A DNA stretch of 56,831 nucleotides from contig CALVSK010000002.1 of the NCBI GenBank assembly GCA_944359015.1, positions 1 through 56,831 on the forward strand, given 5' to 3'. The translations under genes and the position numbers were made by a program. This document shows positions 158 to 39,400 of the stretch, piece after piece (the stretch's first letter is position 1; every line of letters starts with the position of its first letter). This DNA comes from an uncultured Bacilli bacterium (GTDB lineage Bacteria > Bacillota_I > Bacilli_A > RF39 > UBA660). Under the pieces are notes generated by a model that had not been told where the DNA came from, did not search any database, and worked only from the letters and a program-made list of their open reading frames with translations.

Positions 158-1267
158 TTAATTTATTCTAAATGGGTCACTGCTTGTTCCAGAACCGCTG
201 ATAAAGGTTGTTGAATGTATTAGATAGAAGCAAGGACGTGCCACATTCGACATGTATACTGGAAAATAATGTAAACTTCCTGTCGAATACACTGAATACG
301 CGTATTCATTACCAGAATTATAATTAGAAATTGTCCATTCATTGGTTTCTAAATATAGCCAATTTGAGTTTATTGCTGCATTATATGCATATAATGCAGT
401 TGCCCAATAATTTGGACTTGCTGCAAATCCATAATCACTTACATACATTAATCCTATTTTCATAATATCTGTTGCGCTACTACTATTTACGCCTAATTCC
501 ATATTGTAATATTGTTTAGCTGTGTAAGTGTTATCTCTAGCCATTCCTCCAACTTTCCATGTATGAGTTGCTATTTTGTTTTGCCATGTTGTACTTAATG
601 TATTGTAGTATGTTGTATTTAATGTATTTCTTATATCAGATGTACTCCATGTATTTACATTTTCACTATCCCACTCATAGCTTCCATAACTTGTCGAATT
701 AATTAATTTTACTTTATCATCAAACACTCCAATAATGCGATATAAATTATCACTCGAGCAAACTTCATCACAGCTTCCAAAACATACATAATTATTCGGG
801 TTCGCTCCTGCATATCGATAACTATTATCTTCTGCACTATTCGCTAAACTAGAATCATGATAATACATTCCATTTTCTCCTTGAAATGTATACAAATTTT
901 TTATATAATCAGCAAAATACATTATCTCTGGTTCTTTATCAAAGTACACATAGCACTTATCACTTTTATTTGTTTGCATTATTATTCTTTTTGTTTCTTC
1001 ATTCCAAGAAAGTGTTCCACCATTTTCACATTTAGATAATCTTTCATTAAATATATAACCTGAACTTGGCCACGAAGTATCATTTGAAATTTGGTATTTA
1101 CCACTACCAGCTTCTGTTTCATAAAGCATGCTTATGGCATTTGATGAAACAATATTATTAATTTTTTCGGATTTTAAAACCTCATTTTCTTCTTTTGGTA
1201 TAATTGTTTTTATAAATATGCATACTAATATTATTAAAAAAATAATACAAATTTTAAAATACTTCAT
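158..1267 (-). CDS. Membrane-anchored surface protein, paralog P1 of a 4-member family (copy without a hypervariable patch)
   Basis: 369-aa ORF with an N-terminal TM segment (FKICIIFLIILVCIFI). It shares YYHD..SAEDNSYRYAGANPNNYVCFGS..NLYRIIGVF..WSTSDIR.TLNTTYYN.LS..WQNKIATHTWKVGGMA..IGLMYVSDYGF..NWLYL..EWT...ARP.FYL..SG.GT..P.RI with ORFs 13974-15404 and 36560-38020. Confidence 0.8.
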   Translation of the reverse strand: MKYFKICIIFLIILVCIFIKTIIPKEENEVLKSEKINNIVSSNAISMLYETEAGSGKYQISNDTSWPSSGYIFNERLSKCENGGTLSWNEETKRIIMQTNKSDKCYVYFDKEPEIMYFADYIKNLYTFQGENGMYYHDSSLANSAEDNSYRYAGANPNNYVCFGSCDEVCSSDNLYRIIGVFDDKVKLINSTSYGSYEWDSENVNTWSTSDIRNTLNTTYYNTLSTTWQNKIATHTWKVGGMARDNTYTAKQYYNMELGVNSSSATDIMKIGLMYVSDYGFAASPNYWATALYAYNAAINSNWLYLETNEWTISNYNSGNEYAYSVYSTGSLHYFPVYMSNVARPCFYLIHSTTFISGSGTSSDPFRIN

Positions 1268-10731: not shown

Positions 10732-10808
10732 GGACCTCTAGCTCAGTTGGTTAGAGCATCCGGCTCATAACCGGGCGGTCGTAGGTTCGAGTCCTACGAG
10801 GTCCACCA
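10732..10808 (+). tRNA. tRNA with anticodon CAT, most like lysidine-dependent tRNA-Ile2 rather than elongator or initiator Met
   Basis: It folds as a cloverleaf: acceptor GGACCTC/GAGGTCC, D-arm TAGCTCAGTTGGTTAGAGCA, anticodon loop CTCATAA, T-arm GTAGGTTCGAGTCCTAC and an encoded CCA. G1-C72 excludes an initiator. From memory the sequence is close to B. subtilis tRNA-Ile(CAU). Confidence 0.9.
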
Positions 10809-10819
10809 TTTTTTTATTT

Positions 10820-10904
10820 GCAGGTATGGCGGAATTGGTAGACGCGATAGACTTAGGATCTATTGGATTATTCTGTGGGGGTTCAAGTCCCTCTACCTGC
10901 ACCA
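10820..10904 (+). tRNA. tRNA-Leu (anticodon TAG)
   Basis: Acceptor GCAGGTA/TACCTGC, D-arm GCGGAATTGGTAGACGC, anticodon loop CTTAGGA, a long variable arm, a TTCAAGT T-loop and an encoded CCA. Confidence 0.9.
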
Positions 10905-13891: not shown

Positions 13892-13910
13892 TAAATCAAA
13901 TCCTTTCTAT

Positions 13911-14066
13911 TTTATGTTGATAACTCGCGGACCCTCGCCGTTTTAGATGCGGCGAGGGCTTTTGTTTCTCCTTCTAACTTATTTTATACGGATTACTCTC
14001 TGTTCCATCTCCACTAACATATGTGACATTAGAGTTTAGATAAAAGACTGGTCTGGCCGAATAGCC
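13911..14066 (-). repeat. Near-identical 3' module shared by P2 and P3 (gene tail, stop codon, GC hairpin and about 20 nt beyond)
   Basis: 13911-14066 aligns with 36498-36652 with only a handful of substitutions and one 1-nt indel, by eye. It includes TTTATGTTGATAACTCGCG, the hairpin, and codons for GYSARPVFYLNSNVTYVSGDGTE.NPY.IS. Confidence 0.85.
13932..13958. other. GC-rich 9-bp-stem hairpin downstream of P2
   Basis: CCCTCGCCG-N9-CGGCGAGGG. The T-run lies on the plus-strand side only, which is the wrong side for terminating the minus-strand gene. The same stem with a different loop occurs at 36518-36544. Confidence 0.8.
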
Positions 14067-15404
14067 ATTGTTCGCGCTGAAGTCGTACAAGCTGCCGTTG
14101 ATGTACAGACAGAAAACAATACTACTATCCGACGAATGCGGAGTAATTGTCCATTCATAATCGCCTAAATATAGCCAATTATTACCACTATATAAATCTG
14201 AATAAAAATAATCATATAACGGGATTGTCCAATCTGAAATTTCGGATGAAAATCCATAATCACTTACATACATTAATCCTATTTTCATACTGTCTGTTGT
14301 ACTACTTGAACTACTTCCTACTTCTGTATCATAATATTGTTTTGCTGTATTTGTGTCACTCCAAGCCATTCCTCCGACTTTCCAAGTATGTGTTGCTATT
14401 TTGTTTTGCCATGTTTCACTTAATGTATTGTAATATGTGGTATTTAATGTCGTTCTTATATCTGACGTACTCCATGTATTGCTTCCGCTACTTGCCCATG
14501 CATAATCTCCATAACTTGTTGACTTTATTAGTTTTACTTCACTCCCAAAAACTCCAATTATTCGGTATAAGTTATCACTTGGACAAGTTTCTGCATCACT
14601 GCCAAAGCATACATAATTATTTGGATTTGCTCCAGCATACCTATAACTATTATCTCCTGCACTGTTTGATAAATTTGCATCATGATAATATAAACCATTT
14701 GAACCATCTGTATATGTACTTATTATATAATCTGCAAAAGTTTCTTTATGTTCTTCTTTTTGAATTTGAATTTCTGTAATCAATCTTTTACCAAAATTTA
14801 AAGATTGGTCAAAACTAAGATTTAAGTATGTCAATTTAAAATTCCAAGTTTGAGTTGTTGCGGTTTTGCTAGAATTTGAAGTTATTGTATAGGAATTTGC
14901 AACAGTAAATAAACCTGTTTTAGTTGTAATGTCAAATCCTGATACACCATTAAATGTTCCATAAGTTAAACCATCAATATTTGTAACTTCGCTACCATTA
15001 GGGTCTGTTATTGTAAGAATAATTTCAGGTGTTGAACCATCTGAATAAACAAATGTGTTTGTTGGAATATTAAAATATACAAAATATGTATGTTCCGCTG
15101 TATTATTTGTTGTATTCGCTAAAAGTGAGGCACTTGCTGTTGTAGTAGATACTAAATTTGCACCATTTTCTGGCAATGTTGTTGGTGTTGCATCTATTTT
15201 TAACGGGTCCCCTACTGCAAATTCTAATTTATCAACATCATCACTATTTAATGTAACGTTTTCTCTCGCTTCATTAATGTTAGCTGCTAAAAATGCATAT
15301 GTAATTCGAACTACTAATACTAAAAATACACCTATAATTAATACACCTAAAAAATATAATATATCTTTTTTCTTTATTTTGTTTAGCAATTTCACTTGAC
15401 TCAC
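13974..15404 (-). CDS. Membrane-anchored surface protein, paralog P2, with a C-terminal hypervariable (DGR-VR-like) patch
   Basis: 476-aa ORF with a basic N-terminus and a TM segment (ILYFLGVLIIGVFLVLVV). The N-terminal half is unique. The C-terminal ~250 aa is homologous to P1 and P3. The start may be a GTG or TTG a few codons in. Confidence 0.85.
   Translation of the reverse strand: MSQVKLLNKIKKKDILYFLGVLIIGVFLVLVVRITYAFLAANINEARENVTLNSDDVDKLEFAVGDPLKIDATPTTLPENGANLVSTTTASASLLANTTNNTAEHTYFVYFNIPTNTFVYSDGSTPEIILTITDPNGSEVTNIDGLTYGTFNGVSGFDITTKTGLFTVANSYTITSNSSKTATTQTWNFKLTYLNLSFDQSLNFGKRLITEIQIQKEEHKETFADYIISTYTDGSNGLYYHDANLSNSAGDNSYRYAGANPNNYVCFGSDAETCPSDNLYRIIGVFGSEVKLIKSTSYGDYAWASSGSNTWSTSDIRTTLNTTYYNTLSETWQNKIATHTWKVGGMAWSDTNTAKQYYDTEVGSSSSSTTDSMKIGLMYVSDYGFSSEISDWTIPLYDYFYSDLYSGNNWLYLGDYEWTITPHSSDSSIVFCLYINGSLYDFSANNGYSARPVFYLNSNVTYVSGDGTESNPYKIS
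14067..14147 (-). other. Candidate variable region (VR) of P2
   Basis: The coding strand reads att act ccg cat tcg tcg gat agt agt att gtt ttc tgt ctg tac atc aac ggc agc ttg tac gac ttc agc gcg aac aat. The run of C/G-ending codons is atypical for this genome, and differences from P3 concentrate here. Confidence 0.6.
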
Positions 15405-21435: not shown

Positions 21436-21833
21436 GTGATTGATTACTTTTTAAGTTTTCCATATTATGTTCAAGCTCTTATTGCCACTTTATTTACTTG
21501 GGCTATTACTGCACTAGGTGCTTCTGTCGTTTTTTTATTCAAAAAAGTAAATAAAAGTATTTTAGATGCTATGCTAGGATTTTCAGCTGGAGTTATGATT
21601 GCTGCAACATTTTGGTCTTTATTATCTCCTGCTATAGAAATGGCTGAGGGTTTAAAAATGAATGCTTGGGTAACTGTTAGTATTGGTTTTTTACTAGGAG
21701 GTCTATTACTTTTTATTGGAGATAAAATTTTTGATAAAATTATGAATAAAAAAGAAAAGGATTTAAAAAAAAGTAGTAGTTTTAAAAGATGTTTGATGCT
21801 GATTTCATCCGTTACCCTTCATAACATACCAGA
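21436..21833 (+). pseudogene. 5' fragment of a ZIP-family metal transporter gene (zupT/gufA-like) interrupted by an integrative element
   Basis: GTG start with an AAGGAGG ribosome-binding site. The TM-rich sequence ends ...SSVTLHNIP, after which the frame runs into element DNA (DGIFY stop). The conserved HNIPEG motif is cut after IP. Confidence 0.85.
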
Positions 21834-21839
21834 TGGTAT
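21826..21839 (+). repeat. attL core
   Basis: ATACCAGATGGTAT is an imperfect palindrome (ATACC / GGTAT arms) with central GA at 21832-21833. Confidence 0.75.
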
Positions 21840-21854
21840 ATTTTATTAGAAATG

Positions 21855-21883
21855 TAGACATGCAAAAGACATTATGGTATAAT
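21855..21883 (+). promoter_or_regulatory. Promoter of the element cargo operon
   Basis: TAGACA (21855-21860), a 17-nt spacer, then TATAAT (21878-21883) with an extended -10 element (TGgTATAAT). Confidence 0.55.
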
Positions 21884-21911
21884 TTTAGTAATTATGAAAG
21901 GAATTTGATGT

Positions 21912-23822
21912 ATGACAGAAGAAAATTTAGAAAAATTTGAAAAAAATGGTTTTAAAATCATAGATGCTAAAAAACTAGCCAAAGAATTGTATGGAAAAGA
22001 TTTAGATGAATTTATGGACAGATTACATGCTTTAAAAGAAAGTACGCGAGAAACTAAAATGTTGGATTTTTTTGCTGAATTTCAAAAAAAGATGGGAAAA
22101 ATTGAAGAAATAGTAAATGCTGATGAAATGGTTAGAGCTGGGAATCCAGAAAAACAGGAAACATTTAAGACTAATTTTAAAAAAGTTCAAAATCTTTTTT
22201 TGACTTTACAAAGATACATATCTGCTGAAGCAAATCTTGAAACACAGCACAAAAATATTATTGATGTATCTAAAAGAATACACGAAATAAATAAAGAAAC
22301 TAACTTAACAGAAAGAGAAAAAAACAAGGCAATTTTTGAACTTGTTGCTGGTCAAAAACCTTGTAGAGATGCTTATAATGATGCTTTAACAGTTTTAAAT
22401 GAGCAAAAAAGAGAACTTAAGGGTTTTAGCATTCTAGATATTAGAAATGATTTATTGAAAGAAATTAATAATCTTGATATATCAAGTAAAGAATTGGCAT
22501 TAAATGAAACTAGTAAAAAATCACTCGAAAGTATTATTGGCGAACTTAGAAATGATGCTGCTCTTTATGATTTAGAAACAGTTAAAGCAAGAGATGATTT
22601 TAATATTTTGTGTGAACAATGTGGTTTAGAGTATGATGCTTCTAAGGATTTAAGTCATGAATTGGAAGAACCTGATTTAGATGAACCTGCTAAAGAAAAA
22701 ACTGATTCTGAAGAAAAACAACCACAAGAACTCTTCACTGATGGGCCTGCAAACGATGGACCTTCTAATGATGGGCCTTCAAACGATGTCCCTTCAAATG
22801 ATGTCCCTTCAAATGATGGGCCTGCAAACGATGGACCTTCAAATGACAGACCTTCAAACGATGGACCTTCAAATGATGGACCTTCAAATGATGGACCTTC
22901 TAATGATGGGCCTTCAAACGATGGACCTACTTATGAAAATACTGAACCTGTAGGTAACAAAATAAAAGTAGTTGCAAAAAAATCTTGGGAATGGATAAAA
23001 ACACATAAAAAACAAATATTAATCGCTGCTGGTATTACAGCCTTAGTTGTTGCTTCTATAATTGCGTTTCAAGCTTTGATTCCTGCAATAACTTCTATGA
23101 TGGAATCTTCTTATATTTCAACTTTGAGTACAAGTATGGTTAATAATGGAATATTATGGCATAGTTCCGTGGCGGCTGAGCAAGCTGCTTTACATGCTGC
23201 CAATCAAGCTGGGGCTTCAATTATTAATGCTATAACTGGTGCTTCTACATCTTTTGATGCTGTTACTGGTGTTTGGACCATTGGAGGTCAATCTTTAGCT
23301 TCTTTTGCAAGTGCTGCTGCTGAGACTGCCGCTGTTGCTAGTGCGAAAGTTGCTTCCTTAACCGCTCTTACCCAAGGTACAGTTATTGGTGGCCTTGGAT
23401 TAACTGGTTTAGGTTTAATACTACCGAATGAAAAGAAATCAGCAGAATATAAAGAAATTGATAAAGTAATTAAAAATATTTCAAGAAATATCGATAATTT
23501 TCAAGAAGAAGATGTGATAAATCAATGTAATATGATAATTAATTACATACATACTTCTGTCCATTTAAGTGATAAAGAAAAGCAAGTTTTATTGAAAAAA
23601 GTTGAAAGAATTCTAAAAAAATTACAAAAGAAAGCCAAAAAAGGTAAAACTTTAAATAATCCTGTAGATTCTGAAGAAAATACTTTAGATGTACCAAATG
23701 ATGAAGAAAATATTGAAGAAGAAATTTTGGAAGAACCTGTTATTGATAATGATTTAGGAAATAATAATGATTTAGATGATCCTTTTGCTGATGAAGAAAT
23801 AACAGAAAGTTTTGGGAGGTAA
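21912..23822 (+). CDS. Element cargo: repeat-containing membrane protein of unknown function
   Basis: 636 aa. In order it has an N-terminal coiled-coil-like region, 13 NDGPS-type pentapeptide repeats, a TM helix (ILIAAGITALVVASIIAFQALIPAI), an Ala/Ser/Gly-rich segment, a second hydrophobic stretch and an acidic C-terminus. Confidence 0.8.
   Translation: MTEENLEKFEKNGFKIIDAKKLAKELYGKDLDEFMDRLHALKESTRETKMLDFFAEFQKKMGKIEEIVNADEMVRAGNPEKQETFKTNFKKVQNLFLTLQRYISAEANLETQHKNIIDVSKRIHEINKETNLTEREKNKAIFELVAGQKPCRDAYNDALTVLNEQKRELKGFSILDIRNDLLKEINNLDISSKELALNETSKKSLESIIGELRNDAALYDLETVKARDDFNILCEQCGLEYDASKDLSHELEEPDLDEPAKEKTDSEEKQPQELFTDGPANDGPSNDGPSNDVPSNDVPSNDGPANDGPSNDRPSNDGPSNDGPSNDGPSNDGPSNDGPTYENTEPVGNKIKVVAKKSWEWIKTHKKQILIAAGITALVVASIIAFQALIPAITSMMESSYISTLSTSMVNNGILWHSSVAAEQAALHAANQAGASIINAITGASTSFDAVTGVWTIGGQSLASFASAAAETAAVASAKVASLTALTQGTVIGGLGLTGLGLILPNEKKSAEYKEIDKVIKNISRNIDNFQEEDVINQCNMIINYIHTSVHLSDKEKQVLLKKVERILKKLQKKAKKGKTLNNPVDSEENTLDVPNDEENIEEEILEEPVIDNDLGNNNDLDDPFADEEITESFGR
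22740..22934 (+). repeat. 13 tandem in-frame 15-bp repeats (GATGGNCCTTCAAAY consensus)
   Basis: Read directly: gatgggcctgcaaac gatggaccttctaat gatgggccttcaaac gatgtcccttcaaat ... gatggacctacttat. Confidence 0.9.
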
Positions 23823-23830
23823 TATAAAAT

Positions 23831-24085
23831 ATGAACGTTGATGAAGTGATACAATTAGAAGATAATAATAACTATGGCTTATTATTAAAAGCTGATATAG
23901 ATGACTGCAACTATTTTTTAGCAGTTAAGCTTAATGAAAAAGAAGAGCCAACTAATGAATATAAAGTTTTAAAAGAAATTAATGAAAATACTGATACTTA
24001 TGTTCAAGAAATAAATGACCCATTAATTTTATCACAACTTTTAGAAGAATATTCTATGCAATATGATGAAACTTATAATGATTAA
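23831..24085 (+). CDS. Element cargo: small acidic protein, DUF1292-like
   Basis: The 84-aa pattern L.DNNNYGLLLK....DCNYFLAV...E.E...EYKVL resembles the chromosomal DUF1292 protein at 7061-7333. It starts 9 nt after the upstream stop. Confidence 0.6.
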   Translation: MNVDEVIQLEDNNNYGLLLKADIDDCNYFLAVKLNEKEEPTNEYKVLKEINENTDTYVQEINDPLILSQLLEEYSMQYDETYND

Positions 24086-24089
24086 CTAG

Positions 24090-24111
24090 AGATGCTTATG
24101 CATCTTTTTTT
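24090..24111 (+). terminator. Rho-independent terminator after the cargo operon
   Basis: AGATGC-TTAT-GCATCT followed by T7. Confidence 0.7.
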
Positions 24112-24195
24112 ATATTTTATAAAATATTTTCATATAATTTAATATGAAAAAATTTAAGTTTATATATATTTATTTGCAAAAAAAGGATAATTCTT

Positions 24196-25335
24196 ATGAA
24201 AATCTGGAATAAAACAGTTGCACTCTATTTAAGACTATCTAAAGAAGACAAAAATGAAAGTATTGATAAACAATTAAAATTATTATTGGATTATTTAAAC
24301 AACAATGGTATAAGAAATTATAAAACTTATATTGATGATGGATATACTGGTACTAATTTTAATAGACCTTCTTTTAAAAAAATGATTTTGGATATAGAAG
24401 CAAAATTAATTGATACTATTATTGTTAAAGATTTATCGAGACTTGGTAGAGATTACATAAAACTTGGTGAATTTGTAGAACATTATTTCCCTACTCACAA
24501 TATAAGATTTATTTCAATTAATGATAATATAGATACTCAAAATGATAGTGCTTATAATGATATTCTACCTTTTAAATCTATTTTAAATGATTTATATGCC
24601 AAAGATTTATCTAAAAAAATTAGAAGTTCAATTAAAATTATGCAAAATAACGGCTTATGGACAGGTGGATGTATACCTCTTGGATATAAACAAAGTAAGA
24701 AAAAGAAAAATAAATTAATAGTTAATCCTAAAGAAAAAGAAATCGTAGAAGCTATTTTTTCTTTAGCCTTAAAATTAAATACAATTAATGATATAAAAAA
24801 TGAGTTAAATAAAAATAATCAACCAACACTATCAAAGATAAGAAAAAATAAAAATACTTTATGGAGTACCACTACTATAAAAAACATTCTTAATAATGAA
24901 GTTTATATAGGAAATTTAGTTCAAAATAAACATCAACGATTAAGTTATAAATATAGAGTTACTATTAATAATCCTAAGGCTCAATGGATAAAATGTAACA
25001 ATACCCATGATGCTATAATTGATAAAGATACTTTTTTCAAAGTACAAAAAAAATTTAATAATAAAAAAATAAATAAAACTTTTTTAAATAATATTTATTG
25101 CTTTGAGTGTAAACATAAATTAAGTATTAGAAAAGGCAGAAATAATAAAAAATATTTTTGTTGTAATTTTTACAAAAACAATTTAAAAAATAAATGTTGC
25201 ACCGCTCATGCATTTAGTTATTCAATTTTTATAAAAGAATTTTTTGAATCTATAAAAGAAAATAATATTAAATTAGATAAAATTTGTAAAATTGAGATTT
25301 CCAAAGATAAAAATGTTTATATTTTTTTATCTTGA
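24196..25335 (+). CDS. Large serine recombinase (resolvase catalytic domain, recombinase domain and zinc ribbon)
   Basis: 379 aa. VALYLRLSKED contains the catalytic Ser. Also present are YIDDGYTGTNFNRP, VKDLSRLGRD, the WTGGCIPLGYK recombinase-domain motif and the Cys cluster CFECKHKL...YFCCNFY. Confidence 0.88.
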   Translation: MKIWNKTVALYLRLSKEDKNESIDKQLKLLLDYLNNNGIRNYKTYIDDGYTGTNFNRPSFKKMILDIEAKLIDTIIVKDLSRLGRDYIKLGEFVEHYFPTHNIRFISINDNIDTQNDSAYNDILPFKSILNDLYAKDLSKKIRSSIKIMQNNGLWTGGCIPLGYKQSKKKKNKLIVNPKEKEIVEAIFSLALKLNTINDIKNELNKNNQPTLSKIRKNKNTLWSTTTIKNILNNEVYIGNLVQNKHQRLSYKYRVTINNPKAQWIKCNNTHDAIIDKDTFFKVQKKFNNKKINKTFLNNIYCFECKHKLSIRKGRNNKKYFCCNFYKNNLKNKCCTAHAFSYSIFIKEFFESIKENNIKLDKICKIEISKDKNVYIFLS

Positions 25336-25353
25336 TTTACATTACTTTTAAAT

Positions 25354-25367
25354 ATACCAGAAGGTAT
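25354..25367 (+). repeat. attR core
   Basis: ATACCAGAAGGTAT with central GA at 25360-25361, in the same orientation as attL. Confidence 0.75.
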
Positions 25368-25770
25368 GGCAATTGGAGTTGCATTTGGTTCTGTTGCATA
25401 TGGAATTGAAGGAGCGACTGTTATGGCAGCAGTAATGTTAGCAATTGGAATTGGTATTCAAAATTTTCCAGAAGGCTCAGCTGTTTCTTTGCCTTTAAGA
25501 CGTGAAGGACTGAGTCGTAAAAAAGCTTTTATGTTTGGAAATTTAAGTGGAATAGTAGAACCTATATCTGCAGTAATTGGTGCTATTCTAGTTTTAAAAA
25601 TTCAGATATTATTGCCTATTTTGCTAGCATTTGCTGGTGGGGCTATGATATATGTTGTTGTACAAGAATTAATACCAGAAAGTCAAACTAACGAAAAAAA
25701 AGACCTAATGGCCTTATTTACAATATTTGGATTTATAATTATGATGGTTTTTGATGTAGCACTAGGCTAA
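25362..25770 (+). pseudogene. 3' fragment of the interrupted ZIP-family transporter gene
   Basis: It continues (E)GMAIGVAFG...GIQNFPEGSAVSLPL...GGAMIYVVVQELIPE, typical ZupT/GufA C-terminal TM motifs. The ATG at 25366 has no properly spaced ribosome-binding site. Confidence 0.85.
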
Positions 25771-35510: not shown

Positions 35511-35918
35511 TTAAAATGATGCATAAATCATATTATTCTCTAAATATATTTTAACTTGCATATCATTAACTATATAATTTGTATCATCTTCATTTAATGT
35601 ATCATTTGTCATTATTTTATTTCCTGAGGCATCTGTTTCATCTGTTGTTATATAATTTTCATTTATTAATTCTCCAACAGTTTTTATAATACATTTAGTT
35701 TTAGTTGCACCATCTACAGTACAACTACCACTTAATTTATTTTTATTATCTTCTCCATAGTGTTTTGCACCATTTATTATCAATTCTTCTTTCGATTGCC
35801 ATAAATTTTTATTTATATTTTTTTGAACTCCAGTAACACTTACAAAGCCAATCACTGTTATGATTGCTATTAATACTATTACTGCCATTAATTCTACTAG
35901 CGTAAAACCATTTTTCAT
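35511..35918 (-). CDS. Prepilin-type N-terminal cleavage/methylation domain protein (type IV pilin or pseudopilin)
   Basis: The 135-aa protein begins MKNG/FTLVELMAVIVLIAIITVIGF, a class III signal peptide with Glu at +5. Confidence 0.85.
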   Translation of the reverse strand: MKNGFTLVELMAVIVLIAIITVIGFVSVTGVQKNINKNLWQSKEELIINGAKHYGEDNKNKLSGSCTVDGATKTKCIIKTVGELINENYITTDETDASGNKIMTNDTLNEDDTNYIVNDMQVKIYLENNMIYASF

Positions 35919-35925
35919 AAGTCAC

Positions 35926-36483
35926 CTACTTCATTAATAATTTTAATGCTTCTTTTACTTGTTCTTCTAAAGTATTACTCTTATTTACTTGACCAATTAC
36001 TTTTCTTATTTCATTATTTTTATAGCCTAATGCCACTAAAGTATCAATTAAATCTTCAGTTTCATCAGTTTCTATTTCTTCACATATTTCTATATTTATT
36101 TTACCTTTTAAATCTAAAATTATTTGTCTTGCTAATTTATCACCAATTTTAGGAAATTTAGTTAAATATAATGTATTTTCTCTATCTATTGCATCTACTA
36201 TACCTGCAATAGAACCAGTTGCAAGTATTGGAAGGGCAAGTTTAGCACCAAGACCTTTAACACTGATTAATTTTAAAAATAGTTCATATTCTTCTTTAGT
36301 TTTAAAACCATATAAACTATATTCATCTTCACTTATTTTATTATATACATATACTTTATATTCATTATTTAAAACATAACTAAAAGGATTAGGTACATAT
36401 ATTAAGTAACCAATCCCATTACATTCCAATACTATATTATTACTATTTATTTCACTAACTTTTCCAATTATATAACTATACAT
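35926..36483 (-). CDS. ruvA: Holliday junction DNA helicase subunit RuvA
   Basis: 185 aa beginning MYSYIIGKV...IVLECNGIGY (OB domain), with HhH motifs (L.SVKGLGAKLAL) and a C-terminal domain III. Confidence 0.88.
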   Translation of the reverse strand: MYSYIIGKVSEINSNNIVLECNGIGYLIYVPNPFSYVLNNEYKVYVYNKISEDEYSLYGFKTKEEYELFLKLISVKGLGAKLALPILATGSIAGIVDAIDRENTLYLTKFPKIGDKLARQIILDLKGKINIEICEEIETDETEDLIDTLVALGYKNNEIRKVIGQVNKSNTLEEQVKEALKLLMK

Positions 36484-36497
36484 ACAATCTCCCTAAA

Positions 36498-36652
36498 TTT
36501 ATGTTGATAACTCGCGACCCTCGCCGTTTTATAGGCGGCGAGGGCTTTGGTTTTTCCCTTTAACTTATTCTATACGGATTATTCTCAGTTCCATCTCCGC
36601 TAACATATGTGACATTAGAGTTTAGATAAAAGACTGGTCTGGCCGAATAGCC
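36498..36652 (-). repeat. P3 copy of the shared 3' module
   Basis: See 13911-14066. Confidence 0.85.
36518..36544. other. GC-rich 9-bp-stem hairpin downstream of P3
   Basis: CCCTCGCCG-TTTTATAGG-CGGCGAGGG. The stems are identical to the P2 copy and the loop differs. Confidence 0.8.
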
Positions 36653-38020
36653 GTTGCTCGCGTTGCTGATGTTCAAGTTGCCGTCGTGGTACAGAAGAAA
36701 CGCGCTATAACTGTTCGACGAATACGAAGTAACTGTCCATTCAAGATTACCTAAATATAGCCAATTTGTACTTCTAACTGAATAATAATTCGATAGTGCT
36801 GTTGTCCAATTACTATTACTTGCTGCAAAGCCAAAGTCGCTTACGTACATTAATCCTATTTTCATACTATCTGTTGTACTACTTGAACTACTTCCTACTT
36901 CTATATCATAATATTGTTTTGCTGTATTTGTGTCACTCCAAGCCATTTCTCCGACTTTCCAGGTATGTGTTGCTATTTTGTTTTGCCATGTTGCACTTAA
37001 TGTACTGTAATATGTTGTATTTAATGTACTTCTTATTGTTGAACTACTCCATGTATTACTACTTCCACTATCCCACGCATAACCCCCAATATCCGACAAG
37101 TTCATATTACCGCTGTATGTCCCAGTATCACCAATAAAATTTTCATAATTATCTATAGCTCCATATTCTGTGGACAAATAATCTGCTTTTATTAATTTTA
37201 CTTCATCATCAAATACTCCAATTATGCGATATAAATTATCATTTGGACAAGTTTCTTCATCTGAACCAAAACATACATAATTATTTGGGTCTGCTCCTGC
37301 ATATCTGTAACTATTATCTTCTGCACTATTTGCTAAACTTGAGTCGTGATAATAAAGTCCATTTTCTCCACCACCATATGTGCTTATTATATATTCTGAA
37401 AATGTACCTTCTCTATCATATGATTTAACAGCGACACCGGCATTAAATGTTTTATTCATAGTGGATGCATCAGTTACAGATTCATCTACATATAAATATA
37501 AATCATAAGTTGATTCACCTTTTAAGGGTATGGAATCATTGTATAATTTATAAATAGTTGAAAAAGTTCCATTTATTCCATTGTTATATTGTGTTTGTTC
37601 TTCAGCTGTAAATTCACTTATAGCATTTGTGGCATTAGATAAAATTCCTTCTGTTAAAATATCTTTAGAGTTATTTTTAGTTATTATATAATGAATATTT
37701 GATGCATCTAAAGTATTTGTATTTAAAGTAGCTAAATAAAGATTAAATCCTACATAATTTTCACATGAACTTGTTACAGTGAATGTATATGGTGTAGTTT
37801 GTAATGCTTTATTCTTGCTCATAGGATATGTATTATTTAAATCTATTGATACATCTGTATCTTCTAATGTTATTTTGGCACAACTTTGTAGTGTTACTTC
37901 TGTTACTGATTCTGTATCTATACCTGGCCTCATAAAAGAGTAAGTAACTCCTAAAACTATTGTTATAATTATTAATACTGAAATGATACTTAATAGTATA
38001 ATTCTTGTTCTTGGTTTCAT
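36560..38020 (-). CDS. Membrane-anchored surface protein, paralog P3, with a C-terminal hypervariable (DGR-VR-like) patch
   Basis: 486 aa with TM segment IILLSIISVLIIITIVLGV and a unique beta-rich N-terminal half. The C-terminal half is homologous to P1 and P2, with stretches of near-identical DNA to P2. Confidence 0.85.
   Translation of the reverse strand: MKPRTRIILLSIISVLIIITIVLGVTYSFMRPGIDTESVTEVTLQSCAKITLEDTDVSIDLNNTYPMSKNKALQTTPYTFTVTSSCENYVGFNLYLATLNTNTLDASNIHYIITKNNSKDILTEGILSNATNAISEFTAEEQTQYNNGINGTFSTIYKLYNDSIPLKGESTYDLYLYVDESVTDASTMNKTFNAGVAVKSYDREGTFSEYIISTYGGGENGLYYHDSSLANSAEDNSYRYAGADPNNYVCFGSDEETCPNDNLYRIIGVFDDEVKLIKADYLSTEYGAIDNYENFIGDTGTYSGNMNLSDIGGYAWDSGSSNTWSSSTIRSTLNTTYYSTLSATWQNKIATHTWKVGEMAWSDTNTAKQYYDIEVGSSSSSTTDSMKIGLMYVSDFGFAASNSNWTTALSNYYSVRSTNWLYLGNLEWTVTSYSSNSYSAFLLYHDGNLNISNASNGYSARPVFYLNSNVTYVSGDGTENNPYRIS
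36653..36733 (-). other. Candidate variable region (VR) of P3
   Basis: The coding strand reads gtt act tcg tat tcg tcg aac agt tat agc gcg ttt ctt ctg tac cac gac ggc aac ttg aac atc agc aac gcg agc aac. Confidence 0.6.
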
Positions 38021-38116
38021 ATCATCACCTATAATATGATGATAACATTAATTTGTGCTTTTTTCAATTATTATTGCAAAAATTAATGTAAAATAAAAAT
38101 TAGTATTTTGTTTTTA

Positions 38117-39400
38117 CTAATCTTTATTATATTCATCATCTTTAAAAGTAAACATATAATCAAGTATTTGAACTTCATCGCCAGGTTTAGCACCTAATCT
38201 TGTAAGTTCATCTTCTATACCCATACCTTTAAATTTTCTTGCAAATCTTAAAACTCCTTCATCTTCATTAAATTTTGTCATTTTTAATAAAGTTTCTATT
38301 TCTTTACCACTTACAACCCAGATATTTCCATCTTTTTTAATATTAAATGGTTTTATATCTTCATATTTATAAAGTTTATATTCACTTTCTTCATATAGTT
38401 TTACTTCTGGTAATGTATCAAGAATATCAGCTAATTTAATTATTAATTTATCAATACCTTCGTTATTCATACAACTAATAGGGATTATTTCTAAATTTGG
38501 ATATTCATTTTTAAAAATTTCTAAATTTTTTGTAGCATTTTCTAAATCCATTTTGTTTGCAATAATTATTTCTTTTTTATTTTTTAATATATCATTATAA
38601 GTTTCAATTTCTTTTCTTATTATTTTATAGTCATTTACTGTGTTTCTTCCTTCTTCACTACCCATATCTATAACATGAGCAAGTATTTTAGTACGCATTG
38701 CATGTTTTAAAAATTCAGTCCCTAAACCTACTCCTTTACTAGCCCCTTCAATTAAACCCGGTAAATCAGCCATAATAAAAGAACGCCTATCTTTTAGTTT
38801 TACAACACCTAAATTTGGAGAAAGTGTTGTAAAGTGATATGCTGCTATTTTAGGTTGAGCTGATGATATTATTGATAATAATGTAGATTTTCCAACACTA
38901 GGCATACCAACTAAACCAACATCTGCTAGCACTTTTAATTCTAAACGTACTATTTTTTCTTCTCCTGGTTCACCATTTTCACTAAATTTTGGTGCTGGTA
39001 GATTATGAGTTGCAAAAGATTTATTACCTTTGCCGCCCCTACCACCTTTAGCAACTACTATTTCTTCATCATAATTTATTAAATCTGCTATAATTTCATT
39101 AGTATTTGCATCATAAATTGTAGTTCCTGCTGGTACTTTTATAATTATATCTTCAGCATTTTTTCCATATTTATTAGAACCTTTGCCGTTTTCACCTTTA
39201 TCAGCCTTAATTATTTTTTTATAACTTAAATCAATTAAAGTTTTTAAATTTTTATCGACCTTAAAAATTATGCTGGCACCTTTACCACCATTTCCTCCAT
39301 CTGGTCCACCCATAGGAACAAATTTTTCTCTTCTAAATGATGTACATCCATCCCCACCAGCACCTGCTATTAATTTAATAGTTAATTCATCTACAAACAT
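38117..39400 (-). CDS. obg: GTPase Obg/CgtA
   Basis: The track ORF runs to 39409. AGGTG followed 6 nt later by ATG at 39400 (MFVDE...) is the canonical Obg start. Features are the Gly-rich Obg fold (GGDGG.GG.GG), the G1 motif GMPSVGKST and a C-terminal OCT domain. Confidence 0.92.
   Translation of the reverse strand: MFVDELTIKLIAGAGGDGCTSFRREKFVPMGGPDGGNGGKGASIIFKVDKNLKTLIDLSYKKIIKADKGENGKGSNKYGKNAEDIIIKVPAGTTIYDANTNEIIADLINYDEEIVVAKGGRGGKGNKSFATHNLPAPKFSENGEPGEEKIVRLELKVLADVGLVGMPSVGKSTLLSIISSAQPKIAAYHFTTLSPNLGVVKLKDRRSFIMADLPGLIEGASKGVGLGTEFLKHAMRTKILAHVIDMGSEEGRNTVNDYKIIRKEIETYNDILKNKKEIIIANKMDLENATKNLEIFKNEYPNLEIIPISCMNNEGIDKLIIKLADILDTLPEVKLYEESEYKLYKYEDIKPFNIKKDGNIWVVSGKEIETLLKMTKFNEDEGVLRFARKFKGMGIEDELTRLGAKPGDEVQILDYMFTFKDDEYNKD

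Follow-up and report, generated by a model that had tools for sequence, protein, structure and literature searches.

Does the GC-rich patch near the 3' end of P3, a putative surface-protein gene of an uncultured Bacilli bacterium, belong to a diversity-generating retroelement (DGR), and is it still being rewritten? P3 lies in a stretch of 56,831 nucleotides (contig CALVSK010000002.1 of assembly GCA_944359015.1, positions 1 to 56,831; hereafter the window) that is AT-rich, with 25.6% GC. The initial annotation described a DGR-type patch in P3 and in a second gene, P2, and proposed a multi-target, trans-acting system that repeatedly overwrites both from a template. Our analysis supports the reading that the patch is a genuine DGR variable repeat (VR), that the P3 copy appears frozen, that its template repeat (TR) and reverse transcriptase (RT) lie outside the window, and that the system is decaying in this strain. 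We assign this reading a probability of roughly 0.78.

Two Dispersed Genes Share One 3' Module

The features of P3 and P2 on which the argument rests are as follows.

36560-38020, minus strand: P3 gene from the open reading frame (ORF) list, 486 amino acids, with a hydrophobic helix at the N-terminus, a beta-sandwich domain and, at the C-terminus, a DUF6273 lectin-like domain that holds the VR
36638-36733, minus strand: P3 VR, 96 nt, homologous to the TR of the L034, L035, L036 and L037 cassettes
36632-36652, minus strand: invariant 21-mer GGCTATTCGGCCAGACCAGTC, whose first 15 nt (36638-36652) form the GC-rich VR 3' end common to the TR
36563-36637, minus strand: invariant coding tail PVFYLNSNVTYVSGDGTENNPYRIS, which runs from the VR to the stop codon and is near-identical in the two genes
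36518-36544, minus strand: P3 hairpin, a 9-bp GC-rich stem with a 9-nt loop (-12.4 kcal/mol; DNA-fold z -2.8)
36502-36516 in P3 and 13916-13930 in P2, minus strand: motif CGCGAGTTATCAACA directly after the hairpin
13974-15404, minus strand: P2 gene, second remote target of the same TR, with a DUF6273 match (E 1.4e-5)
14052-14147, minus strand: P2 VR, homologous to the same TR
13932-13958, minus strand: P2 hairpin (fold -12.2 kcal/mol; z -4.1)

The codon run quoted for P3 in the initial annotation is present on the minus strand and is followed by GGCTATTCGGCCAGACCAGTC at 36652-36632. The span of 36632-36736 given there was essentially right, and TR homology places the VR at 36638-36733. A P2-like architecture 22.6 kb away was also found, with a spacing of 22,586 bp and with the 21-mer, tail and hairpin common to both genes. 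The 3' modules of P2 and P3 are 82% identical over 268 nt; their differences cluster in the patch, and the tail and post-stop hairpin are near-identical. GGCTATTCGGCCAGACCAGTC matched the window exactly twice (14046-14066 and 36632-36652, both on the minus strand), and none of 100 shuffles matched. The patch is also a local GC peak, reaching 0.57 in P3 and 0.53 in P2 in 60-nt windows.

The VR corresponds to residues 430-461 of P3 and contains ten AAC-derived codons, variable at positions 1 and 2 only. In 120 close homologues, the segment from EWTISR to AVRPSFYL is hypervariable between constant flanks, and the tail motif RP.FYL...G.G...P that directly follows it is conserved.

The Cognate Template Lies Outside the Window

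When both strands of the window were scanned without gaps for each of the two VRs, and for a scaffold pattern in which the variable sites were set to N, only the two VRs were returned and no TR. No window ORF carries an RT motif, and no RT/TR cassette is present in the 10 kb to the left of the window. The DGR reading thus needs a template elsewhere. A Y.DD match in the window was rejected as an RT, as it belongs to a serine recombinase (24196-25335). The other GC-rich islands considered as a TR are tRNAs (10732-10904) and two stretches of ORF 21912-23822, including its repeat array.

The same scaffold pattern was run over species-representative genomes and metagenome contigs, where it matched related species only (L001, L002 and L030) and not the source genome. 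L001 and L002 are short contigs of uncultured Bacilli, each with a complete DGR cassette: an MSL-like small ORF (weak MutS_I match), a 118-amino-acid bAvd-like ORF, a 354-amino-acid RT with RVT_1, IGN..SQ and YMDD motifs, a non-coding TR, a 96-amino-acid ORF and targets. The TR of these cassettes consists of AAC codons on the same GGC/TTG/GCG scaffold, and their DUF6273-type targets carry a VR and the same kind of hairpin. This layout recurs in L015-L017, L028-L030 and L032-L033, and RT homologues are numerous in ENA assemblies. Membership in the RT family is indicated by RVT_1 in L001 (E 2e-18), by PF00078 listed for P0024 and P0249, and by the IGNMTSQ and YMDD motifs. The putative Avd-type ORF of 118 amino acids overlaps the RT start; its bAvd (PF22296) match has an E of 7e-8 and, at 33 bits, falls below the 40-bit cut-off, with the listed matches marked weak.

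A conserved non-coding stretch of ~130 nt in these cassettes contains a 27-mer, AATAAGCATTAAGGACATGAATTATCC, ~50 nt downstream of the TR (L001:2391-2417). It is perfect in L001, L002, L015-L017, L028, L030 and L032, has one mismatch in L035 and is absent from the window, and a scan of viral contigs gave no match. The 27-mer is probably part of a structured DGR RNA; Rfam had no entry that matched it.

Four VRs (P2, P3, L019 and L021) have T at position 3 of codon 9, which predicted a TR with AAT there, unlike the L002 TR. The predicted TR was then found exactly in L034, via RT cluster P0024, and in L035. The TR of L036 and L037 also has AAT at codon 9, but AAT rather than ACT at codon 2. With a cognate TR beside a putative bAvd and an RT in L034, L035, L036 and L037, the assignment of the patch as a DGR-type VR in the initial annotation is borne out. 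Cassettes reached from P0013, P0014, P0020 and P0036 were discarded as cognate, since the TRs compared had 8-13 non-adenine mismatches. Likewise, a 707-amino-acid protein beside the L015 cassette was considered as a syntenic partner and dropped, as it has no homology to the window's 707-amino-acid ORF.

L034 comes from sample ERZ16268251, which also holds the window-species contigs L008 and L019. L035 is scaffold_3548 of ERZ28614198, reached via 90% cluster members, and carries the same TR with two adjacent targets. In the same sample, scaffold_201 matches the window at 99.986% identity over 21 kb, so we infer that the L035 cassette and the window belong to one genome. Two further samples (L036 and L037) provide an intact RT allele and a full-length TR. 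The cassette is not on scaffold_201, which covers window coordinates ~10,850 to 136,650. From these coordinates, P3 would be separated from the cassette by at least ~46 kb on one side, or ~100 kb on the other.

Variation Is Concentrated on Template Adenines

The P3 VR differs from its cognate TR at 12 of 36 adenine sites and at two of 60 other sites (Fisher p = 1e-4); the patch thus equals the TR at 58/60 non-adenine positions. The same bias was seen in each of the other VRs:

P2: 15/36 adenine, 6/60 other sites (Fisher p = 6e-4)
L035 upstream target: 18/36 adenine, 3/60 other (Fisher p = 4e-7)
L035 downstream target: 16/36 adenine, 4/60 other (Fisher p = 2e-5)
L019: 18/36 adenine, 2/60 other (Fisher p = 8e-8)
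L021: 17/36 adenine, 2/60 other (Fisher p = 3e-7)
L036 adjacent target: 22/37 adenine, 1/59 other, the latter at column 1, the 5' edge of the VR

The initial annotation had predicted that a fixed set of columns, the template adenines, would vary across copies. Taking the P3, P2, L035 upstream, L035 downstream, L019 and L021 alleles together, 33/36 adenine columns are variable against 14/60 non-adenine columns (p = 3e-11). In the part of the VR that runs from CTG to its end, each of the ten AAC codons is variable at its first two positions. Of the 22 variable columns in this part, 20 are template adenines, and the GGC, TTG and GCG codons scattered among the AAC codons are constant throughout. 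Changes concentrated on adenines in this way are the sequence signature of mutagenic retrohoming. Homology between TR and VR ends after ...GCCAGA, where the TR reads GGCTATTCGGCCAGA and then GAGCCC and the VR reads ...AGA and then CCAGTC. The end of homology at the 21-mer is a putative boundary resembling an initiation of mutagenic homing (IMH) site.

In the mechanism that we propose, an RNA copy of the TR would be reverse transcribed with random misincorporation opposite adenines, and the resulting cDNA would overwrite the VR as far as its GC-rich end, ...GGCTATTCGGCCAGA. The post-stop hairpin would probably help the machinery to locate its target. The template and enzymes (bAvd, the 354-amino-acid RT, the TR and an MSL-like remnant) would belong to a cassette carried by a different scaffold of this organism, and the TR of that cassette would supply the two cassette-adjacent targets and the remote P2 and P3. 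One TR serves at least four targets. P2 and P3 fit the same template, in agreement with the earlier proposal of two dispersed targets that share one recognition module in a multi-target system.

An explanation without any retroelement was also considered, in which gene conversion homogenised the 3' ends of P2 and P3 and the variation of the patch came from ordinary diversifying selection acting on a binding loop. With 7,948 matches, DUF6273 is a very large family, and recombination clearly acts at the P2 locus, where L019 is a mosaic and L020 and L024 hold a non-VR paralog. Against this explanation, the differences are concentrated on the adenines of a non-coding template beside an RT (p = 1e-4 to 8e-8 per allele). 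The restriction of change to positions 1 and 2 of the AAC codons, with position 3 and the scaffold codons constant, is not predicted by point mutation with selection, and the finding of the TR in L034, L035 and L036/L037 refutes this alternative. We regard it as extremely unlikely.

The recombination at P2 was traced through the neighbouring gene. The exact P2 protein (with its GTG start codon) was not in the collection searched, and other alleles of the locus were recovered via the identical PfkB protein. Among strains with this PfkB (L019, L020, L021 and L024), the P2 locus (13892-15404) is polymorphic and includes mosaics with a swapped C-terminal domain. L019 and L021 share the scaffold but differ in their VRs; the identity of L019 to P2 is 95-99% in the N-terminal half of the gene and ~80% in the C-terminal domain. 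In L020 and L024, a non-VR paralog without a hairpin occupies the P2 site. The mosaic and paralog-swapped alleles indicate that recombination among paralogs acts alongside the DGR.

The P3 Variable Repeat Appears Frozen and the Cassette Is Decaying

The P3 VR was identical in all assemblies found, which represent 9 identified samples from several projects and comprise samples other than those with an intact RT (L036 and L037). The exact P3 protein is present on 8 contigs, with six listed locations corresponding to 6 samples. A RuvA-anchored look-up, which was not conditioned on P3, gave this VR alone in every contig that extended to it, L012 among them. The P3 90% identity cluster has three members that differ outside the VR only, and L038/L039 differ from the window at 17 positions in 36480-38120, none of them in the VR. 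No between-sample heterogeneity of the P3 VR was detected in the assemblies of the 9 identified samples.

The L035 cassette, from the sample that matches the window, is damaged at several points. Its RT (1802-2866) is interrupted by an in-frame TAA at codon 182, ahead of the YMDD motif, which leaves ORFs of 181 and 166 amino acids. The same split, with products P0248, P0249, P0250 and P0251, was found again in NCBI, ENA and Logan assemblies. L036 and L037 carry an intact RT allele (P0247), which is 98.9% identical once its GTG start is read as Met. The codon-182 stop is predicted to abolish RT activity. Near its 5' end, the TR has lost 1 nt (ACTC-GAAT) in both L035:2869-2965 and L034:1776-1872, relative to all VRs and to the L036/L037 TR (GTAAATCCGAAT); homing across this deletion would frameshift the target. 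The MSL-like gene of the L035 cassette is a remnant. Of the six non-adenine changes in the P2 VR, four turn G/C into T at the third position of a codon, a pattern that fits the AT-biased drift to be expected after overwriting has ceased. In the window strain, the RT stop, the missing TR base and a P3 VR fixed in all sampled strains would together mark the decay of the system.

Related lineages also contain damaged cassettes. In L032:5864-6480 and in L033, a ~420-nt AT-rich insertion splits the TR and the RT is cut to 287 amino acids, making this a degenerate DGR. In the L002 cassette, the TR contains two additional bases and the RT is interrupted.

These observations bear on the possibility that P3 is actively and repeatedly diversified by a DGR that works in trans today. 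The cis elements are all intact in the window (GC-rich VR end, tail and hairpin), and intact RT alleles with a full-length TR exist in the species (L036 and L037). The cassette-adjacent VR differs strongly between strains: between L035 and L036, the VR window of this target is 66% identical, and other 96-nt windows of the gene are 90-100% identical. P2-locus alleles differ at adenine columns as well, and the VR or hairpin is where many contigs end, as could happen in a heterogeneous population. The P3 VR is nevertheless the same in strains that differ elsewhere in the gene, and the sample matching the window has both the RT stop and the TR deletion. Non-adenine changes have appeared (two in P3 and six in P2), and the P3 hairpin is weakened in L038/L039. 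The ~150-nt module that P2, P3 and the cassette targets have in common accounts for the contig breaks just as well; breaks at the tail and hairpin are explained by this repeat and are no proof of heterogeneity. Present-day activity at P3 is quite unlikely in our judgment, and any ongoing diversification of this copy is absent or at most rare.

Two statements of the initial annotation have to be revised in this light. The sequence was said to be repeatedly overwritten, and for P3 the invariant VR in 9 identified samples and the damaged matching cassette speak otherwise. It was also said to escape the AT mutational bias, and the P2 VR shows G/C-to-T changes at non-adenine third positions. The tcg, gcg and ggc codons persist because the last homing copied a GC-rich scaffold from the TR, and their presence by itself is no proof of present activity. 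A VR-like signature in a genome is evidence of past, not present, DGR activity.

Several points weigh against our reading of a genuine but frozen VR. Metagenome assemblies are consensus sequences in which low-frequency VR variants would not show, so rare homing into P3 is possible, and strains with an intact RT exist (L036 and L037). The link between the L035 cassette and the window rests on metagenome co-occurrence, GC content (26.1% vs 25.6%) and the exact TR/VR scaffold match, with no physical linkage. The hairpin, with its 9-nt loop ~94 nt from the VR, is unlike described phage DGR hairpins, and a Foldseek search of the P3 model against the PDB gave no significant match to a solved C-type lectin or DGR variable protein (lectins at E > 0.5). 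Finally, the invariance of P3 spans strains that are ~1% diverged, so it is probably older than the RT stop and a further cause is needed. Over 2.7 kb, the broken and intact cassettes (L035 vs L037) differ by ~1.3%. The RT stop is probably insufficient on its own to account for the invariance, and selection on the allele or a rarely used target is probably also needed.

A further possibility is that targets with an identical recognition module (VR end, 25-codon tail, distal hairpin and GTTATCAACA motif) are used very unequally by one DGR, with the choice set by the distal hairpin-plus-motif or by local context. Strains differ at the cassette-adjacent target and at the P2 locus, and P3 is fixed across ~1% divergence. 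We consider this idea unlikely; if true, remote targets could be 'parked' as fixed alleles, an undescribed layer of DGR target regulation.

A further observation concerns the history of the allele. Contigs L007 and L008 differ from the window by ~1.4% in the flanks, with SNP-dense (single-nucleotide polymorphism) blocks such as 35685-35862, and have zero differences across P3 and the 3' half of obg (36498-38917). This pattern suggests recombinational spread of this P3 allele, for contigs from a look-up that had selected an identical P3 protein.

The Post-Stop Hairpin

In P3 the hairpin starts 15 nt past the stop codon, ~94 nt beyond the end of TR/VR homology. Every VR-bearing gene in our set has a GC-rich hairpin ~10-15 nt past the stop, formed by two unrelated stem sequences at the same position. 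The hairpin is absent from the non-VR paralogs, namely P1 of the window and the gene in L020/L024. Most hairpins in the set are followed by a (G)TTATC(A/C)ACA motif, with variants after those of window P2 and P3 and in L001, L017, L030, L035 and L036. Rfam gave no match at the VR, hairpin or TR. This arrangement makes the post-stop hairpin a plausible candidate for a DGR target-recognition structure.

Alternatively, the hairpin and the GTTATCAACA motif could be only a terminator or regulatory site that is carried along with the 3' module and plays no part in DGR targeting. Its place after the stop, beyond the 4-34 bp of phage DGRs (PMC3240598), would suit such a role, and a consensus scan calls it terminator-like. 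This sole call is on the opposite strand, however, and on the gene strand no T-run follows the stem. The presence of a hairpin after every VR-bearing gene, with two unrelated stems at one position, and its lack in non-VR paralogs also argue against this view. A purely terminator-like or regulatory function is possible, although we favour the candidate recognition structure.

Two strain differences in hairpins were recorded. At L035:4628-4654, compared with the same locus in L036, the 9-nt loop is inverted (TTTTATAGG vs CCTATAAAA) and the stem is unchanged; the loop of this cassette-adjacent target hairpin seems to have been flipped within the palindrome between strains. In L038/L039, the 3' arm of the P3 hairpin has changed from GGG to AAG, which weakens the stem.

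Target Protein and Relation to Known Systems

Pfam DUF6273 matched P3 at residues 317-467 (E 4.8e-5; 23.7 bits against a 23.5-bit cut-off) and P2 with 25.4 bits (E 1.4e-5), and P1 fell just under the threshold. The AlphaFold2 model of P3 has a mean pLDDT (predicted local distance difference test) of 83.7 and comprises a helix at residues 3-28, a beta-sandwich and a C-terminal domain. The C-terminal domain was modelled at a pLDDT of 87.1, and there the VR makes up the final strands and loops ahead of the conserved RPVFYL tail. Foldseek against BFVD returned phage DUF6273 proteins (E 2e-8 to 8e-4). Against the PDB, the only significant match was the T. ramosa IgA peptidase, and the Lcl C-terminal domain was among the non-significant ones; matches of the full-length model were dominated by the N-terminal beta-sandwich. 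A sequence search of the PDB with P3 gave no match. DUF6273 is a known DGR target domain, with the VR at its C-terminus in Faecalibacterium phage targets (PMC11792537), and its fold is C-type-lectin-like (PMC10743442). In the P3 model, the VR is placed at the C-terminal face of this domain. P3 appears to be a membrane-anchored protein that is presumably surface-exposed.

Dispersed targets are not new to DGRs. In a survey, 45 of 372 DGRs had non-adjacent targets, ten of them with targets > 100 kb away, and an MSL accessory class was described (PMC5758913). The Treponema denticola DGR has seven remote targets and the Legionella pneumophila DGR has an MSL accessory gene (Wu et al. 2018, PMC5758913). 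The system described here resembles these chromosomal DGRs in having one TR with bAvd and RT, several targets of which some are far from the cassette, adenine-specific VR/TR differences, and a VR at the 3' end of the target gene. As in the Legionella type, an MSL-like gene (weak MutS_I match) stands beside avd in the relatives L001 and L030. Unlike them, it has DUF6273 targets rather than the FGE-sulfatase type of C-type lectin, its host is an uncultured AT-rich member of the Bacilli, and in this strain its RT contains a stop codon, its TR lacks 1 nt and only a remnant is left of its MSL-like gene.

DUF6273 targets of phage DGRs are known from the Faecalibacterium prophages Lelie, CP11, Roos and Pioen (PMC11792537) and as the nd4/nd12 tentaclins (PMC10743442). 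The domain, its lectin-like fold and the position of the VR at the DUF6273 C-terminus, as in the Faecalibacterium prophages, are shared with P2 and P3. The DUF6273 targets described in those two studies are phage proteins, whereas the targets here are cellular and lie among the housekeeping genes ruvA, obg and pfkB. They have an N-terminal membrane helix and so are not phage tail or receptor-binding proteins.

At the Mtd site of Bordetella phage BPP-1, the hairpin directly follows the VR, and phage DGR hairpins lie 4-34 bp away with a 4-nt GRNA loop (PMC3240598). The window shares with this site a GC-rich VR 3' end where TR/VR homology stops and a GC-rich downstream inverted repeat that is conserved across lineages in structure, not sequence. 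In contrast to BPP-1, the hairpin here comes after a 25-codon invariant tail and the stop codon, and an extra conserved motif (GTTATCAACA) follows the stem.

Both the multi-target trans-acting DGR and the DUF6273 target are thus already known architecture, and the present case has been caught while decaying. What it offers is a chromosomal multi-target DGR in uncultured, very AT-rich Bacilli that diversifies membrane-anchored DUF6273 lectin-like proteins, together with a natural decay series: intact RT with full TR, RT stop with TR deletion, and insertion-split TR with truncated RT. Frozen VRs, AT-biased drift and eroding hairpins accompany the series and make it useful for following the transition from a hypervariable to an ordinary locus.

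Window Setting and Other Features

The window is bacterial chromosome rather than phage. P3 is flanked by obg and ruvA, P2 adjoins pfkB, and tRNA genes and an L21 leader are present. A third paralog lies at the edge of the window:

158-1267, minus strand: P1 gene, DUF6273 paralog without VR, GC patch or hairpin

P1 aligns with P2 and P3 over the C-terminal domain and has an AT-rich segment at the site of the patch (34% GC vs 47-50%). Beside it is a divergent helix-turn-helix (HTH) gene (1345-1590), and the pair resembles the upstream target and HTH gene of the L017 and L030 cassettes (47-60% tblastx identity). P1 was examined as a cassette neighbour and rejected, as the 10 kb beyond it holds only housekeeping genes; a MurJ-like gene, not a cassette, follows P1 (seen in L031). 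The P1 and HTH region may be the site of an ancestral cassette loss.

The plus-strand gene block 21436-25770 holds ORF 21912-23822 and the large serine recombinase (24196-25335), and may be an integrated element. Inside ORF 21912-23822, positions 22710-22964 form a 15-nt tandem repeat of ~16 units that encodes D-G-P-S-N-like pentapeptides. Just downstream of ruvA and near P3, 35511-35918 encodes a 135-amino-acid protein with a prepilin-type N-terminal methylation motif.

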